A stretch of DNA of 18,170 nt from a virus (Duplodnaviria; Heunggongvirae; Uroviricota; Caudoviricetes), in the IMG/VR virus record IMGVR_UViG_2802429219_000014. The stretch is one strand, 5' to 3'. The notes beneath the pieces are model-generated. The model searched no databases. It was given only the letters and a program-made list of their open reading frames with translations, and was not told where the DNA came from. The translations under genes were made by a program, and so were the position numbers. Within the stretch, counting starts at the first letter, position 1. Each line of letters starts with the position of its first letter. Below are positions 2,795-17,608 of the stretch, piece by piece.

Positions 2795-5387
2795 TTGCAT
2801 ATTCCTTAGCCCAGCGGGGCAGTGATAATGTCTTAATAGCTGGCCATTCATCGGTATTCAGGCAGTCAGACAGGGTTCGCAGATTGCGGTGATATTCCTG
2901 TTGACCTGCCAGTTTTGCTTCTTCGCCCATCATGAAAATTTCAACCGGATAACGTCCGCATTCAATAGTTGTGCTGGCAACCAGAAAAACGAAAGTTGGC
3001 TGCACTCCAAACTGTGCTTCATAACCGTCACTGTAGAATGCATCCTGAACGTGATAGCGGTAGTCGTAATAAGCGGTTTTGAATCGTTGAATATCCGCCG
3101 TAGTTTTCACGTCCATGATCCAGTGAAATTCAGGGATAATTTTGTCCGGACGGCACCGACACAAAATTCCTGTTTCAGGATCTTCCCAGTAAATTGATGA
3201 TTCAGCGTGTCCGGCGCTTTCAACAAGCCATTGCCCCAGCGGCAAAGCCATAACGCTTTGATACATGAGTTCAATTTTCCGGCCTTCTTCCGCAGTGATA
3301 ACCGTTTTTCCTGTGCTTGCGCATTCCATCAGAAACGCTTTCTCTTCTTCTTTTCCGGCGTTTGTACGGCGGTTAAATTCAGGTGCTACGATAAAGCGGT
3401 TACTGAATTCTTCCGGTTCAAGTACCCGGCAGTGGAAAGCGGTTCCTAAATCGAGCGTTTTTGTCTTTGTGGTGTCCACGGGGGCATTTTTACGCCACAA
3501 ATATAGTGCCGGAGTATCAGCAATGTCATCGAGCTGAGACTTACTGACACCGGGACCCGCGTGGTAATTCTCATTCGAAATTCCGTAATAAATACCTGGC
3601 TCTATGTCTTCTACGATTACGGGATCTGCGACTTCGCCAGTTTCATCACTGCAATCGCGATGCGGATCGCTGCCAGCATTCTCATTGTGCGGATGTTCAG
3701 CGCCTTCCATTTCCTCCGGATCATTTTCCTTAGCTTCAACCTGACTCTCTTCATCGAATGTTTCCTGGTATGTTGCGTCGCCCATCACCGCACCACAGTC
3801 AGGGCAGTTATCCCCGCCAGTCTGGCCGCAGGCATTGCAGGCTATTTCCGGTTCCTGTTGCACTACTGGCTCAGGTTGATTCATATCCGGGCTGGTTTTT
3901 TCCGTTTCTGGCTGGTTCTGGTACACAGAGTCGCGAGTCTGGATCCCCTTTACCCATTTCGGATCGTTCGGGTCGCTAATTCCGTCAACAAATTCACCAC
4001 GTGATGCAGCAAGCAATTTATCGGCATCGACAGGATCTTTTGATGGAATGTTTTTCCGGGCTTCATGGAGTTCTGCCCGCAGTTCCTGATATTTCGCATC
4101 AACAGAATTTACCTGTGACTGAGCATCCAGCGGCTGCGTGTCCTGATGATGTTCAGTTGCGTCCGGTTCCATTGTTTCAGCCTCTCCCTGTTCAACTGCC
4201 GTTGTTCCAGATGGTTGCGGTTTTTCTTCATCATCCTGTTTTCCTTCTTCTGTTACTCGCTGCGGCATCGGGGCAGAGGAGCGACCGCAGGCAATATCCA
4301 CGATTTCCGGATCAGGGTTGGCATGATCGGTTTCAGTCAGTACTTTGTTCAGATATTCAGTGACGTGCGCGGGGATGACCTCGATCCCAATTGGTGCTTC
4401 TTTTACGGACGCAACCACGATGGCGCGGGAATAATCCAGCCCGCCAGGCATGGTGATGAATTTGTCGCGGAAAACAGAAAAGGGCGGTTTATTTTCAGCG
4501 ATAATTTCCTCAATGCGTTTAGCGTGTGCCGGATGAAGGTTATAGATGTCCAGATCCATTGAACGGGCCAGTACGCCAGTGGCTACGTCGCGCGCCAGTG
4601 ACGTCAGATCGTGTACGAAACCTTCGCCGCGATCGGTGAGGTTTCCGCCGCCAGCATTAGCACCGGAAGCCGTGCGAGTGATGTGTGAAACACGATTACC
4701 CTTCATCCACTCTTTTGTCAGCAGTCCTCGATCGGTGTAGTCAGCGTTCAGGTATGCTTCGAAAAAAGCAGTTATCAGTCCCAGGTTTGAATTACCAGGA
4801 TTAGGGAAAACTTTGTCAGTGTCACGAACCAGTTTGTGGAGTTCGCGAATTTCCAGCGGGTCGAGCAGGCTGGTTTTGTGGGAAACAGCCAGGGCAGTAA
4901 CAGCCGGTAGTTCTTCAGCCCGAGCAATGTGTAATGCCTGGAGTCCGTCGCGTGAAACGTGCGTTACCGGTTTTTCGCTGCCGTGTTGAGCAAGCCAACG
5001 AATGGGCAGTTCCTGGCCAGAAATTGGGAGTAGCATATTCTCCTCAATCTCAGTCATGTCTTCGCCGTTGACGTTGGTATTGCCTTGATAGTGAGCGTTG
5101 TCTGGTGCTGCTCCCGGTTTTAGTTCCCATGTCATGGAGTCTTTGCTGAGTTGATAGCGTTCACTCCAGGTAAAATCGATCTCACCTTCAGCGGGCAGGT
5201 CATTAACGACAGGAAAATTCGTGGCAACAGCTTTAAAATAGCTGCTCAGTTTTTTACCTGACTTAACGATCAGGTAGTCCAGAGTGGCACAGGTCGATTC
5301 AAAATCGTTGCTTGCCCACAGGACGACGTCAGGTTCACCGGATGATTTTTTCGCTTTCCGTAACAGGAAGAGTGGTTTTGTGCTCAT
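2787..5387 (-). CDS. recE: RecE exonuclease VIII (866 aa)
   Basis: 866-aa ORF with acidic/Pro-rich central linker region and C-terminal nuclease domain; size and order match Rac recE. Confidence 0.9.
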
Positions 5388-7309: not shown

Positions 7310-7444
7310 TCACATCTTGTTGCTACGTATAGCGACTTCTGCCTGCCAGAGATCCCAGTCGTTGCTGCGTAAAGCCTGCACAGCCTGGTTGTAAGTGATA
7401 CCGCAACAATCCATCAAATACTGAACTACTTCGTAATGCACCAT
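7310..7444 (-). CDS. ydaG: Rac small protein YdaG-like (44 aa)
   Basis: ATG at 7444 gives MVHYEVVQYLMDCCGITYNQAVQALRSNDWDLWQAEVAIRSNKM; first gene of the leftward early operon by position. Confidence 0.65.
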   Translation of the reverse strand: MVHYEVVQYLMDCCGITYNQAVQALRSNDWDLWQAEVAIRSNKM

Positions 7445-7618
7445 CTTATCTCTCCCCTTAACGCCGGGTGGCGGAACTGAAACCTGCTGCACTGCAAAAT
7501 CTGAACCCTGCCGTCATGTTCATACGCCTCGGGCTGGCTACTTAACCCCTGACCACTGCCTGGTAACTCGAAGTATTGCCCTGCGTTCTGTGGGACGGGG
7601 TGGGTTGGTAGGTATATG

Positions 7619-7660
7619 ATGTACTTTGTGTTCATTGATGTAAAGTACTTTAAGTACATT
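7619..7660. promoter_or_regulatory. Candidate left operator/promoter region (OL-like): three GTAC-core motifs (ATGTACT 7619-7625, AAGTACTT 7643-7650, TAAGTACATT 7651-7660)
   Basis: Repeats read directly in the sequence; the same ATGTACT core recurs between racR and ydaS; lies downstream of racR and upstream of leftward ydaG. Confidence 0.4.
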
Positions 7661-7734
7661 TTGTGTGTAAAAAAATGAGATGGGATAAAGTGAAGCACAA
7701 ACCCGGAGGGGGGCGCTACCGGATTTATGCTGGT

Positions 7735-8154
7735 TTAAGAGGCTTTTTGTTTTTTCTTTCGTGCTAACTCTTCGTAAATTGCATTGTACTTCTGTTTTTT
7801 CTCCTCAAGAGTTTTTAAAAGTTCATCTGTCTCACTGTCAGGGAGCTCGTCCAGAAGGTCAATGATGATTTTTTGTCTTGGATTTAACTCCTGATAGAAA
7901 CGTACCTGTCCACTTTCTTCTGTATCCTCTCCCAAAAGATAGGTTGGTGTTGTTCCAATGAGTGTTGCTAATTCCCTTAATTTCTCTCGGCGAGGAATTG
8001 TTTCGCCATTAAACCATTTGCTAACCGCTTTTGGTGTTAATTTCATTCGACGGGCAATTTCTGCCTGCCTTCCATGTTGTTCATAACCAGCGTTTTCACA
8101 GGCTAGCGCAAGCCTACTGGCGAACTCTTTACGCGCTTTATCTTCATGAACCAT
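7735..8154 (-). CDS. racR: Prophage repressor RacR (139 aa as called here, HTH near N-terminus)
   Basis: HTH-like segment and divergent arrangement with the cro-like ydaS; position as in Rac. Confidence 0.85.
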   Translation of the reverse strand: MVHEDKARKEFASRLALACENAGYEQHGRQAEIARRMKLTPKAVSKWFNGETIPRREKLRELATLIGTTPTYLLGEDTEESGQVRFYQELNPRQKIIIDLLDELPDSETDELLKTLEEKKQKYNAIYEELARKKKQKAS

Positions 8155-8233
8155 AAGTTCAATGATATTCGCTCTTGAATGTACTGTCAGTTCTGTTATA
8201 GCATGTACTCAAAGTTCACATTGTGAGGGTGAT
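8155..8233. promoter_or_regulatory. Divergent racR/ydaS control region with two direct ATGTACT repeats (8179-8185, 8203-8209) and a rightward TTGAAT-16-TATAGC promoter-like element (8175-8202)
   Basis: Motifs read in the sequence; 79-bp interval between divergent start codons; operator role inferred by analogy with lambdoid OR. Confidence 0.45.
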
Positions 8234-8488
8234 ATGAACCAGAAAACACTTGAAGATGTAATCAAAACTGTTCGCGTTTCTGTTGTGGCCGACGTTTGTG
8301 GTGTCAGCCAAAGAGCAATCTACAAATGGATGGATAACGGAAAATTGCCTCGCACAGAATATACCGGCGAAACAAATTACGCTGAAAAAATCGCTCATGC
8401 ATCAAACGGATTATTTTCTGCCGATGTAATTTTAACTATTGGCAGAAATAAAACTACTACGAAAAAGCTGATGGGAGTTGATTCATGA
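8234..8488 (+). CDS. ydaS: Cro-like HTH protein YdaS (84 aa from the ATG with an SD; an upstream ATG at 8162 is implausible)
   Basis: SD GAGGGTG before the ATG at 8234; stop overlaps the ydaT start (ATGA); position as in Rac. Confidence 0.75.
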   Translation: MNQKTLEDVIKTVRVSVVADVCGVSQRAIYKWMDNGKLPRTEYTGETNYAEKIAHASNGLFSADVILTIGRNKTTTKKLMGVDS

Positions 8489-8907
8489 AAATCAAGCATG
8501 AGCACATCGAGTCAGTGTTGTTAGCCCTGGCAGCCGAAAAAGGGCAGGCATGGGTAGCCAATGCCATTACTGAAGAATATCTGCGCCAGGGGGGCGGCGA
8601 ATTGCCCCTGGTACCAGGCAAGGACTGGAATAATCAGCAGAACATCTATCACCGTTGGTTAAAAGGTGAAACGGAAGCGCAAAGGGAAAAAATTCAGAAA
8701 CTGATCCCTGCAATTCTGGCAATCCTTCCGCGCGAGCTGCGTCACCGACTCTGCATCTTCGATACCCTGGAACGCCGTGCATTACTGGCGGCGCAGGAAG
8801 CGTTAAGTACGGCAATTGATGCGCATGATGATGCAGTCCAGGCCGTTTACCGGAAAGCGCATTTCAGCGGCGGCGGGTCTTCCGACGATTCTGTCATTGT
8901 TCATTAA
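8485..8907 (+). CDS. ydaT: YdaT (140 aa), toxic partner of YdaS in Rac
   Basis: 140-aa ORF coupled to ydaS; size and position match Rac ydaT. Confidence 0.8.
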   Translation: MKIKHEHIESVLLALAAEKGQAWVANAITEEYLRQGGGELPLVPGKDWNNQQNIYHRWLKGETEAQREKIQKLIPAILAILPRELRHRLCIFDTLERRALLAAQEALSTAIDAHDDAVQAVYRKAHFSGGGSSDDSVIVH

Positions 8908-12657: not shown

Positions 12658-12833
12658 TGCTGCGGGTGCTTGAGGCTATCTGCCTCAGGCATGAACACCA
12701 AAAGGCAGATAGAGAAAAGCCCCAGTTAACATTACGCGTCCTGCAAGACGCTTAACATTAATCTGAGGCTCAATCTATGCTGAACACATGTAGGTTAGCC
12801 TCTTACGTGCCGAAAGGCAAGGAGAAGCAGGCT

Positions 12834-12989
12834 ATGAAGCAGCAAAAGGCGATGTTAATCGCCCTGATCGTCATCTGTTTAACCGTCATAGTGACGGCAC
12901 TGGTAACGAGGAAAGACCTCTGCGAGGTACGAATCCGAACCGGGCAGACGGAAGTCGCTGTCTTCACAGCTTACGAACCTGAGGAGTAA
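12834..12989 (+). CDS. hokD: Hok/Gef-family type I toxin (51 aa membrane peptide), HokD/RelF-like
   Basis: MKQQKAMLIALIVICLTVIVTALVTRKDLCEVRIRTGQTEVAVFTAYEPEE; single TM helix plus the conserved Hok C-terminal core; SD AAGGAG 9 nt before the ATG. Confidence 0.85.
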   Translation: MKQQKAMLIALIVICLTVIVTALVTRKDLCEVRIRTGQTEVAVFTAYEPEE

Positions 12990-14055: not shown

Positions 14056-14345
14056 TGGTGGATTTACGTAAAGCGGCGCGGGGCCAGATGTGCCAGGTCA
14101 GAATCCCTGGCTACTGCAATCACAATCCCGAAACTTCTGTGCTGGCGCATTACAGGTTGGCAGGGACGTGCGGAACAGCGACAAAACCACACGATATGCA
14201 GGCAGCGATTGCCTGTAACTCATGCCACGATTTAATCGACGGGCGGGTAAAAACCAGCGATTACACCAAAGAAGAATTACGCCTGATGCATGCAGAAGGT
14301 GTTTTTCGCACGCAAGAAATCTGGAGAAAGGAAGGTTATTTATGA
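14055..14345 (+). CDS. YbcO-like Cys-rich protein (96 aa, DUF1364-like putative Zn-binding nuclease)
   Basis: 96 aa with several Cys/His; same size and position (just before Q) as DLP12 YbcO. Confidence 0.65.
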   Translation: MVDLRKAARGQMCQVRIPGYCNHNPETSVLAHYRLAGTCGTATKPHDMQAAIACNSCHDLIDGRVKTSDYTKEELRLMHAEGVFRTQEIWRKEGYL

Positions 14346-14878
14346 TTTACCCAACAAATACAGGCAAAAGCGGGGAACACCTTCGTCTCACCACGCTGGA
14401 AAGTGTCTGGATTCAGGGAAAACTGCGCATGTGGGGGCGCTGGTCGTATATTGGCGGCGGTAAGACGGGGAATATGTTTAACCAGTTGCTGGCGTCAAAA
14501 AAATTGACGAAAACAGCCATCAATGAAGCCCTGCGCAGAATGAAAAAAGCGGGAATAGAGAAAGCTGAGCTGGAAGCGTTTTTGCGAGAGATGATCAACG
14601 GCAAGCAAAAGAGCTGGCTGGTGCATTGTACTGATGCAGAGGCACTAAAAATTGATAGTGTTATAGGTGAAGTTCTGGCGGATCATCCAGGACTACTAAA
14701 TGTCCTGAGTCAGCGTTATGTGGGGCGAGGGATGAGTAAGAGAAGGATGGCCGAGTTATTAAACGAACAGTACCCAGAGTGGGCGTTGATTACATGCCGA
14801 CGTCGTGTTGATCAGTGGTTGCGTGTTGCTGAGTTCATTTTGTATTCACCTATGAGAGAAGCGTTCGATTATGCTTAA
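14342..14878 (+). CDS. Putative late-gene antiterminator Q (178 aa, Q21/QuuD-like family)
   Basis: ATG at 14342 overlaps the preceding stop (ATGA); WGRWS motif near the N-terminus; last gene before the tRNA/lysis region. Confidence 0.55.
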   Translation: MIYPTNTGKSGEHLRLTTLESVWIQGKLRMWGRWSYIGGGKTGNMFNQLLASKKLTKTAINEALRRMKKAGIEKAELEAFLREMINGKQKSWLVHCTDAEALKIDSVIGEVLADHPGLLNVLSQRYVGRGMSKRRMAELLNEQYPEWALITCRRRVDQWLRVAEFILYSPMREAFDYA

Positions 14879-15240: not shown

Positions 15241-15316
<76 letters not shown>

Positions 15317-15319
15317 TAT

Positions 15320-15394
<75 letters not shown>

Positions 15395-15827: not shown

Positions 15828-16166
15828 CGGCAATGCCATGTAAGTCAGTGATGAATATGGCGCAAAAAAAGCGCGGCTGTCGGATTAACGCCGCGGGACA
15901 AAGTCCGTGAAGAAGAATAAGTATCGGTCTCCTTCCGGAGACGAGTTGATATTACTAAGCTTTAAAAATGGTTTAAATCCTCAGATTAACCTTAATTTCA
16001 GATAAGGTTTATTTCATTTTCTCCGCGTCACATCCGACGCACATCACATCAGATAACACCACACAAAAGGCATCTGCGGGTGTCTTTGACGGGGTGTTTT
16101 TTACGGGCCGCTGGTGGCCATTTTTTGTTTCCATTACACAGCGCCCGCATCTGCGAGGTGGGGGTT

Positions 16167-16382
16167 ATGAAATCCATGGATAAGTTAACAACGGGTGTCG
16201 CCTATGGCACCTCCGCAGGCAGTGCTGGCTACTGGTTTTTACAGTTGCTCGATAGAGTAACTCCGTCACAGTGGGCTGCAATCGGTGTGCTGGGTAGTCT
16301 GGTATTTGGCTTGCTGACGTACCTGACAAACCTTTATTTCAAGATTAAAGAAGACAAGCGTAAGGTTGCACGGGGAGAGTAA
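16167..16382 (+). CDS. Class II pinholin with dual start (MKSM...; 71/68 aa), phage 21 S-like
   Basis: SD GAGGTGGGGG before the ATG; dual-start Met-Lys-Ser-Met motif; two TM segments; aligns from memory with S21. Confidence 0.85.
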
Positions 16383-16386
16383 TTCA

Positions 16387-16731
16387 ATGACACAAAACTA
16401 TGAACTGATTGTGAAAGGGATCCGCAATTTTGAGAATAAAGTTGCGGTAACTGTAGCATTAAGGGACAAAAAACGCTTTGACAGTGAAATTTTTGACCTG
16501 GACATCTCGCTGGACCGTGTTGAAGGTGCCGCGCTGGAGTTTTATGAGGCAGCAGCCAGAAGGAGCATCAGACAGGTCTTCCTGGAAGTTGCAGCCGGGT
16601 TATGTGAAGGGGATGAGCAGTCGCCGGAAAAGCGCCCCGTAATTTTAGAGGCGCAGAATGTGTGGATAACCTACAAAGGAAAGCTACCAGGAAGAATTAC
16701 TGATTCTCTGAAGACTCCACCGAAATGGTAA
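16387..16731 (+). CDS. Hypothetical protein (114 aa) between holin and endolysin, possibly YdfR/DUF1327-like
   Basis: SD GGGGAGAG before the ATG, 4 nt after the holin stop; K-12 Qin carries ydfR in the equivalent position. Confidence 0.55.
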   Translation: MTQNYELIVKGIRNFENKVAVTVALRDKKRFDSEIFDLDISLDRVEGAALEFYEAAARRSIRQVFLEVAAGLCEGDEQSPEKRPVILEAQNVWITYKGKLPGRITDSLKTPPKW

Positions 16732-16969
16732 TTTTACCAGCATATTTTTCTTCCAGTAATGCCGCCAGCCACTTGAAAGAATTTTGTTGTTCCTGGGACC
16801 ATTTGGGGTTGCGTGATTCAAGCAGGAGCGATGCCAGTGTTGGTTGCATTTGTTCTCTGGGAATTGATAAGGCCAAATATGAAAATGCAACAGTGAGGGC
16901 ATTTACATCATCCCGAAGCTTTGAAATGCAGTCGAGCAACTCCTGTAGAGAAATGGTGTTATTGTCCAT
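16697..16969 (-). CDS. Candidate reverse-strand hypothetical protein (90 aa) inside the lysis cassette
   Basis: Good SD (AAGAGGA, 6-nt spacer) before the ATG at 16969; helical-looking composition; 3' end overlaps the preceding plus-strand gene by 35 nt. Confidence 0.35.
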   Translation of the reverse strand: MDNNTISLQELLDCISKLRDDVNALTVAFSYLALSIPREQMQPTLASLLLESRNPKWSQEQQNSFKWLAALLEEKYAGKITISVESSENQ

Positions 16970-17074
16970 AAATAATCCTCTTGATTGTCTTTACCTTTTC
17001 CCCGCCTGATTCAACAGGCCAGGACAGATAAACATGTCCAGGGTTCAGAAACCGATAAATCCTGATAAATATCC

Positions 17075-17608
17075 ATGAACGCAAGAATCAAATACGGCCT
17101 GTCAGCGGCCGTTCTGGCGCTGATTGGAGCAGGCGCATCTGCTCCTGAGATACTTGACCAGTTTCTGGATGAAAAAGAGGGTAACCACACTACGGCATAC
17201 CGCGATGGTTCCGGCATATGGACCATCTGTCGAGGGGCCACGATGGTGGATGGTAAACCTGTTATTCCTGGCATGAAACTGACGAAGGAAAAATGCGATC
17301 AGGTTAATGCCATTGAACGGGATAAGGCACTGGCATGGGTGGAGCGCAATATTAAAGTGCCACTGACCGAACCACAGAAAGCGGGTATAGCGTCATTTTG
17401 CCCCTATAACATTGGCCCCGGTAAGTGTTTCCCGTCGACGTTTTATAAGCGGCTGAATGCAGGTGATCGTAAAGGTGCCTGCGAGGCGATTCGCTGGTGG
17501 ATTAAGGACAGGGGGCGCGATTGCCGCCTTCGTTCAAATAACTGTTACGGTCAGGTTATTCGTCGTGATCAGGAGAGCGCATTAGCCTGTTGGGGGATAG
17601 ATCAGTGA
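17075..17608 (+). CDS. SAR endolysin (177 aa, T4-lysozyme fold, GH24-like), phage 21 R-like
   Basis: N-terminal Gly/Ala-rich weakly hydrophobic signal-anchor-release segment ([18 protein letters not shown]) followed by an E...D...T catalytic region. Confidence 0.9.

Follow-up and report, generated by a model that had tools for sequence, protein, structure and literature searches.

Paired GTAC-core repeats beside the repressor gene of a Rac-like prophage are very probably left operators of an HK022-type immunity module

RESULTS

Organization of the immunity region

The window, by which we mean the whole 18,170-bp stretch of DNA that was analyzed, is a Rac-type prophage at ttcA and carries intR, xisR, ralR, recET, racC, kilR, sieB, and ydaF. 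Its immunity region contains two divergent regulatory genes:

7735..8154, minus strand: immunity repressor gene, 139 aa (RefSeq WP_000233320.1, 'helix-turn-helix domain-containing protein')
8234..8488, plus strand: cro-like gene, 84 aa, product 62% identical to HK022 Cro

A noncoding interval of 290 nt, as had been claimed from the sequence, separates the repressor stop (7735) from the start of the ydaG-like gene (7444).

Two predicted operators overlap a leftward promoter

The original prediction placed three GTAC-core motifs in this interval, and all were found where it had put them: ATGTACT at 7619-7625, AAGTACTT at 7643-7650, and TAAGTACATT at 7651-7660. The repeats are real, but they make up two 17-bp operators rather than three sites. 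ATGTACT at 7619 is the left half of the first operator, OL1, whose right half, TGTTCAT, had been missed. OL2 is made up of AAGTACTT and TAAGTACATT, one half each; AAGTACTT, previously described as a palindrome, is really a half-site plus one spacer base. The features of the interval are as follows:

7619..7635, no strand assigned: OL1, 17-bp pseudo-palindrome ATGTACT-TTG-TGTTCAT (ATGTACTTTGTGTTCAT)
7643..7659, no strand assigned: OL2, 17-bp operator AAGTACT-TTA-AGTACAT (AAGTACTTTAAGTACAT)
7616..7644, minus strand: pL-like promoter from a consensus promoter scan, with -35 TTTACA (7644..7639), a 17-nt spacer, and -10 CATCAT (7621..7616)

The centers of OL1 and OL2 are 24 bp apart. OL1 has one mismatch to ATGWACT-N3-AGTWCAT and scores 13.8 bits with a matrix built from HK022 operators only; OL2 scores 19.1 bits with the same matrix. 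OL1 occupies the pL spacer and overlaps the -10 hexamer, and OL2 overlaps the upstream edge of the -35 hexamer. The promoter scored 9/12 against the consensus, and both of its hexamers are identical to those of the pL annotated in HK022 (X16093). Transcription from pL is predicted to start near 7609. No third left site was accepted: the position of 'oL3' in the HK75 record is degenerate in the window, and at the HK022 position of OL3, 53 bp from OL2, just GTGAAGC is left.

Three sites in the divergent region overlap the start of the repressor gene and two promoters

The ATGTACT core had been said to recur in the divergent region between the repressor and cro-like genes, and it was found there at 8179-8185 and 8203-8209. 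A motif search of both regions gave 17-mer sites in each, two on the left and three on the right. The right-hand features are as follows (scores are from the HK022-only matrix):

8146..8162, no strand assigned: OR3-equivalent, ATGAACC-ATA-AGTTCAA (ATGAACCATAAGTTCAA), 19.6 bits
8179..8195, no strand assigned: OR2-equivalent, ATGTACT-GTC-AGTTCTG, aligned with HK022 oR2, 14.7 bits
8203..8219, no strand assigned: OR1-equivalent, ATGTACT-CAA-AGTTCAC, aligned with HK022 oR1, 16.7 bits
8175..8202, plus strand: pR-equivalent, TTGAAT (8175-8180), 16 nt, TATAGC (8197-8202), from alignment to the annotated HK022 pR
8162..8190, minus strand: repressor-maintenance-type promoter, CTGACA-17-TATCAT, from the promoter scan, 10/12 matches

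The OR3-equivalent is centered over the repressor start codon (8154..8152) and matches HK022 oR3 at each of its 15 central bp. It took no part in deriving the pattern, which came from the other four sites, and was found afterward. The OR2-equivalent sits both in the pR spacer and over the -35 hexamer of the leftward repressor promoter, and the OR1-equivalent lies directly downstream of the pR -10. The spacings are 33 bp (OR3 to OR2) and 24 bp (OR2 to OR1).

The pR-equivalent (TTGAAT-16-TATAGC, compared with TTGACT-16-CATAAT in HK022) was assigned by alignment only and has a poor -10, TATAGC. Because it did not reach the cutoff of the consensus scan, it is predicted to be weaker than its HK022 counterpart; transcription from it would start at about 8209. 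The repressor ATG lies 7 nt past the end of the -10 (TATCAT) of its promoter, and for this reason a leaderless repressor mRNA is predicted. A leaderless transcript has been reported for lambda cI. Such transcripts are also known for K-12 racR, from PracR3 (PMC9638921), and for paaR2 (PMC8630535).

A window scan allowing up to 3 mismatches found no OFR-like site downstream of the cro-like gene. A copy of the YdaT box, TTGATT-CATGAA-AATCAA, lies at 8478-8495 and spans the ydaT start, with the start codon in the box spacer. It matches perfectly the published CP-933P consensus, TTGATT-N6-AATCAA (PMC9986795, PMC11879457).

The operators align with those of HK022 and are conserved across genera

In a search of phage records, a 630-bp immunity core was 98% identical in four Escherichia phages. 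One of them is Tritos, whose record annotates the two genes as CI and Cro. More distantly, positions 7611 to ~7707 and ~7950 to 8240 of the window match HK022 and HK75 at ~75% nucleotide identity. O276 is also ~75% identical in two pieces, OL and the segment containing the DNA-binding domain and OR. The records of HK022 (X16093) and HK75 (HM173637) annotate oL1, oL2, oR3, oR2, oR1, pL, and pR; the operators in X16093 are labelled 'potential'. In the alignment, which is base for base at all five sites, OL1 and OL2 correspond to oL1 and oL2 of both phages, and the right-hand sites at 8146, 8179, and 8203 correspond to HK022 oR3, oR2, and oR1, respectively.

The comparison covered ten loci: the window, E. 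coli O91, Tritos, HK022, HK75, the Citrobacter phage Omnitron, Klebsiella phage 2, two Salmonella prophages, and the Providencia phage PSTNGR2lys (OR only). In nine of them, from Escherichia, Citrobacter, Klebsiella, and Salmonella, the 24-bp OL spacing and the 33- plus 24-bp OR spacing are both preserved. The position of OL1 is kept in the comparative alignment of these nine loci, and AAGTAC-N5-GTACA of OL2 is invariant in them. The tenth locus, PSTNGR2lys, contributes the OR geometry only. Among 33 distinct sites, G3, A5, C6, G12, T13, and C15 never change, positions 4 and 14 take either A or T, and the three central bases vary freely. The operator consensus is aTGWACy-N3-rGTWCAt, 17 bp with two-fold symmetry.

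Both Salmonella prophages (L010, 3553-4220; L011, 3588-4255) have a higB/higA-like pair between a short repressor gene and OL, in the slot that holds rexAB in lambda and paaA2-parE2 in CP-933P. The OL pair is kept in these prophages despite the insertion, and their short repressors are 62 to 65% identical to the window repressor. Identity of these repressors with Gifsy GfhR was considered and rejected: GfhR starts with MTKVKHH according to the primers in its paper, a different N terminus.

Of 5426 complete E. coli genomes, 1047 carry the immunity core (7611-8240), O157:H7 among them, and so do phages Tritos, vB_EcoS-666R9, -673R7, and -613R10. The RefSeq E. coli entries shown carry only generic 'helix-turn-helix' names, and the phage records call the two proteins CI and Cro or transcriptional regulator and regulatory protein.

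The repeats are very probably OL1 and OL2, the left operators of an HK022-specificity lambdoid immunity module that takes the place of K-12 racR-ydaS in a Rac-like prophage at ttcA. Co-inheritance of the operators with the DNA-binding domain, their symmetry, their spacing, and their overlap with promoters are all observed. Given the overlap of OL1 and OL2 with the -10 and -35 hexamers, the repeats could instead be kept only as elements of pL, or they could be bound only by the Cro-like protein; lambdoid Cro proteins use the operators of the repressor, and this one is 62% identical to HK022 Cro. We regard this explanation as improbable. The 17-mer recurs away from promoter hexamers; OR3, for example, covers a start codon, and OR1 follows the pR -10. 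Its invariant GWAC ... GTWC is two-fold symmetric, unlike promoter hexamers, and the motif changes with the type of repressor while the position of the promoter stays fixed.

The repressor is not RacR, and RacR operators are absent

The original prediction named the repressor RacR and the rightward gene ydaS. Neither name stands. By BLASTP, only 12/33 residues near the helix-turn-helix are identical between the window repressor and K-12 RacR (E value of 1e-4), and only 6/18 residues are identical between the rightward gene product and K-12 YdaS (E value of 0.028). The footprint-derived RacR operator is (T/A)TAGGC-N3-GCCTA(T/A) (PMC9638921). Allowing up to 2 mismatches, this motif has 0 matches in the window and 5 in the K-12 Rac locus, so that the proposed comparison with published RacR sites came out negative. 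Conversely, no ATGWACT-type site was found in K-12 Rac. Binding of a K-12-type RacR to the GTAC-core sites at OL and OR would fit the gene order (sieB-ydaF-ydaG-repressor-cro-like-ydaT-ydaU-ydaV) and the location at ttcA, both of which are as in Rac, but the unrelated protein and the mutually exclusive motifs make it hardly credible. The racR label in the window is an error of annotation by synteny. The function that had been proposed, OL/OR-type repressor sites, is nevertheless well supported by the matching sites in the region between the repressor and cro-like genes.

Homology with K-12 Rac stops at about 7607-7611 and resumes at ydaT, whose product is 98% identical. The left junction of the swap (~7607-7611) coincides with the predicted pL transcription start. 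The right junction, which is approximate and coarser than nucleotide-level resolution, lies at ~8485 by the ydaT start, where the stop of the cro-like gene overlaps the ydaT ATG.

In K-12 Rac, two operators bracket the leftward promoter in the ydaG-racR interval, and three lie in the racR-ydaS region. The left pair consists of ATAGGTAATGCCTAA at 3018 and ATAGGCTATGCCTAA at 3043 (L002, 3015-3057), which bracket a near-consensus leftward promoter of the ydaG-racR interval, TTGACA-17-TATAGT. This pair may be undescribed in the consulted papers on RacR operators, which never mention ydaG. Because the two-plus-three architecture and the offsets between operators and promoters match and the specificities are unrelated, the window and K-12 Rac bear the classic signature of heteroimmune modules.

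The 17-bp operator is confined to the two regions flanking the repressor gene

ATGTACT occurs four times on both strands of the 18,170-bp window, at 7619, 7653 (minus strand), 8179, and 8203, and all four copies lie within the two intergenic regions that flank the repressor gene. The motif is thus not spread through the window at similar frequency, an outcome that had been named as evidence against operators. The count alone is weak evidence, because 12 of 200 shuffles (1.43 copies expected) contained at least four copies; it is the placement that counts. AGTACWT occurs seven times, compared with 2.8 expected, and six of the seven copies are in the two operator regions. GTAC itself is rarer in the window than its base composition predicts (34 versus ~70), and three GTAC fall within 50 bp only where the 50-bp segment starts at 7605-7621, which covers the stretch 7605-7670.

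The full 17-mer, ATGWACT-N3-AGTWCAT, was found with up to 2 mismatches at only five sites, 7619, 7643, 8146, 8179, and 8203. Dinucleotide shuffles gave 0.19 such sites, with a maximum of 3 in 500. With 3 mismatches there are two sites in the window, the same as background (2.2 expected). Since the pattern was derived from four of the five sites, the five-site count is partly circular. We therefore utilized a position matrix from the six annotated HK022 operators only as an independent test. The five window sites were its top five (13.8 to 19.6 bits; the next best scored 10.1), and the best site in the K-12 Rac locus scored 9.4 bits. A chance cluster of a functionless AT-rich heptamer can be dismissed: ATGTACT is short, and the 12/200 shuffles would permit such a cluster, but all copies lie in two ~80-bp segments flanking the repressor gene, the 17-mer is found five times against 0.19 expected, and the geometry is kept across genera.

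The repressor combines an HK022 CI-like DNA-binding domain with a short helical tail

The N-terminal domain of the repressor is identical to that of HK022 CI at 47/99 residues (E value of 6e-32). The HK022 CI-like helix-turn-helix domain covers about residues 1-75, and its recognition-helix segment, TPKA(V/I)SKWFNGE, is kept in all relatives examined, HK022 CI included. Pfam finds PF00717 (Peptidase_S24) in HK022 CI at 2.6e-19, and the domain is also present in the Citrobacter and Klebsiella relatives. Pfam did not find it in the 139-aa window repressor, which has a different, 60-aa tail in the alignment where HK022 CI has the S24 domain. An AlphaFold model of the repressor (mean pLDDT of 82.6) shows a five-helix helix-turn-helix domain (2-74), a disordered linker (77-87), and a tail of two helices (92-103 and 106-138). 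A fold search with this model returned only generic HTH_XRE matches, none with an E value of 1e-3 or below. As judged from the alignment and the model, the window repressor should be non-cleavable, with a short helical tail replacing the S24 cleavage domain. Viable phages, Tritos for one, have this form of the repressor, as do ~19% of complete E. coli genomes.

The S24 domain is assumed, by analogy with lambda CI, to carry the dimerization and cooperativity of HK022 CI. The affinity and cooperativity of HK022 CI on sites spaced by 24 bp cannot simply be transferred to the window repressor, because the C-terminal domain of the latter is unrelated to S24. A tentative idea, which we would put at slightly worse than even, is that an HK022-type DNA-binding domain was recombined onto a short two-helix module, with the ancestral 24-bp operator pairs retained, and that the helical tail alone gives dimerization, cooperativity between paired sites, and looping from OL to OR and is what an antirepressor acts on. 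If so, the domain-swap repressor would be a natural experiment showing that operator geometry does not depend on which kind of oligomerization domain is present.

By its size and missing cleavage domain, the window repressor belongs to the short lambdoid repressors. Those of Gifsy phages and Qin are inactivated by antirepressors (PMC3121763, PMC10448788), which are typically small and LexA controlled. There is no LexA box (CTGT-N8-ACAG) in the 18-kb window, and no antirepressor PHROG was found among ten ORFs at 10.5-17.6 kb. An antirepressor gene may lie outside the window, since in Gifsy phages it lies outside the immunity region.

Proposed regulation by the repressor

Repressor binding, its cooperativity, OL-OR looping, Cro binding, and promoter activity in the window are inferred. 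The presumed ligand of each operator is a dimer of the neighboring 139-aa helix-turn-helix protein. With OL1 and OL2 occupied, RNA polymerase would be kept from pL, because OL1 takes up the pL spacer together with part of the -10 and OL2 overlaps the -35. Blocking pL would keep the ydaG-ydaF-kilR-recET operon silent. On the other side, dimers at OR1 and OR2 would occlude pR and repress the operon of the cro-like gene and ydaT. The repressor would probably also limit its own synthesis, as OR3 sits on its ATG and OR2 covers the -35 of its promoter. The placement of OR3 and OR2 suggests negative autoregulation rather than lambda-like activation, and an OR2-equivalent over the -35 is a misfit with the lambda-style activation model. 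The Cro-like protein most likely uses the same operators. HK022 CI is described as binding adjacent OL and OR operators cooperatively and looping OL to OR (PMC8053113, citing Carlson and Little, 1993). Looping between OL and OR, ~500-580 bp apart, would be possible in the window as well.

Comparison with known immunity systems

The window resembles HK022 and HK75 in its half-site, the 24-bp OL1-OL2 distance, the 33- plus 24-bp OR spacing, the pL hexamers, and the CI recognition helix. The differences lie elsewhere. HK022 CI has 235 aa and an S24 domain, whereas the window repressor has 139 aa and a two-helix tail. HK022 has OL3 and an OFR downstream of cro, and the window is without both. The leftward operon of the window, ydaG/ydaF/kilR, lies behind a leader different from that of HK022; HK022 putL and nun have no sequence match in the window; and cII is replaced by ydaT.

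With K-12 Rac the window shares the prophage backbone and the attachment site, two leftward and three divergent sites (one of them on the repressor ATG), and the offsets from operators to promoters. A leaderless repressor transcript is known in K-12 and predicted in the window. The repressor and Cro-like proteins, in contrast, are unrelated, and so are the operators (TAGGC-N3-GCCTA in K-12, TGWAC-N5-GTWCA in the window).

As in lambda, 17-bp pseudo-symmetric operators ~24 bp apart lie over pL and pR, the promoters are divergent, and the repressor gene is between OL and OR. Unlike lambda, the window has only two recognizable OL sites and a repressor predicted to be non-cleavable, and its operator over the -35 of the repressor promoter speaks against lambda-style activation from OR2. 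The OL-OR distance is ~0.5 kb, compared with 2.3 kb in lambda.

The window repressor is like the short, antirepressor-controlled repressors of the Gifsy GfoR/GtgR and DicA/Rem type in its size (136 to 150 aa), in having a helix-turn-helix but no S24, and in its setting in Rac-, Qin-, and Gifsy-like prophages (PMC3121763, PMC10448788). It differs from that type in its HK022 CI-type DNA-binding domain, and neither an antirepressor nor a LexA box was found in the 18-kb window.

Lambdoid operators with HK022 specificity are already known as a kind of element. What is not obvious from the existing annotation is an HK022-type module, with a non-cleavable repressor as predicted here, in a Rac-type backbone. 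Not every Rac-like prophage at ttcA carries RacR: about one-fifth of complete E. coli genomes, O157:H7 included, carry an HK022-type module named only 'helix-turn-helix.' Conclusions drawn in K-12 on RacR, YdaS toxicity, and RacR cross talk are not transferable to strains with this module. The exact operator and promoter coordinates are now given for the control of kilR, recET, and the ydaT operon, and cross-immunity with HK022-type phages is predicted. The window and K-12 Rac together represent a clean natural swap of immunity modules.

The operon leader and other elements of the window

Downstream of the predicted pL start lies a conserved leader:

7445..7609, minus strand: leader of the ydaG/ydaF/kilR operon, ~165 nt, from conservation

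The leader is 80 to 98% conserved behind at least four immunity modules (that of the window, K-12 RacR, the DicA type of phage pPE4, and phage Evi), with partial conservation in Salmonella. It is C rich over its first 30 nt (15 C, 5 G). A put-like or other structured RNA was considered and rejected: the leader has no Rfam match, its fold is no more stable than those of shuffles (z of +1.1), there is no covariation among six homologues, and it does not align with HK022 putL. The leader may hold a rut site or an antitermination element. A 90-aa ORF at 7426-7698 (minus strand) was rejected as coding: RefSeq does not annotate it, and none of its codons downstream of the predicted pL start is a start codon.

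The window also contains the following (Rfam hits are at the gathering threshold):

1557-1735: RalA antitoxin sRNA, from Rfam
12664-12839: sok antitoxin RNA, from Rfam, adjoining a MokW-like ORF at 12777-12989
15241-15391: two tRNA genes, from Rfam
14222-14878 and 16080-17608: ORFs for a Q-like antiterminator, a holin, and an endolysin
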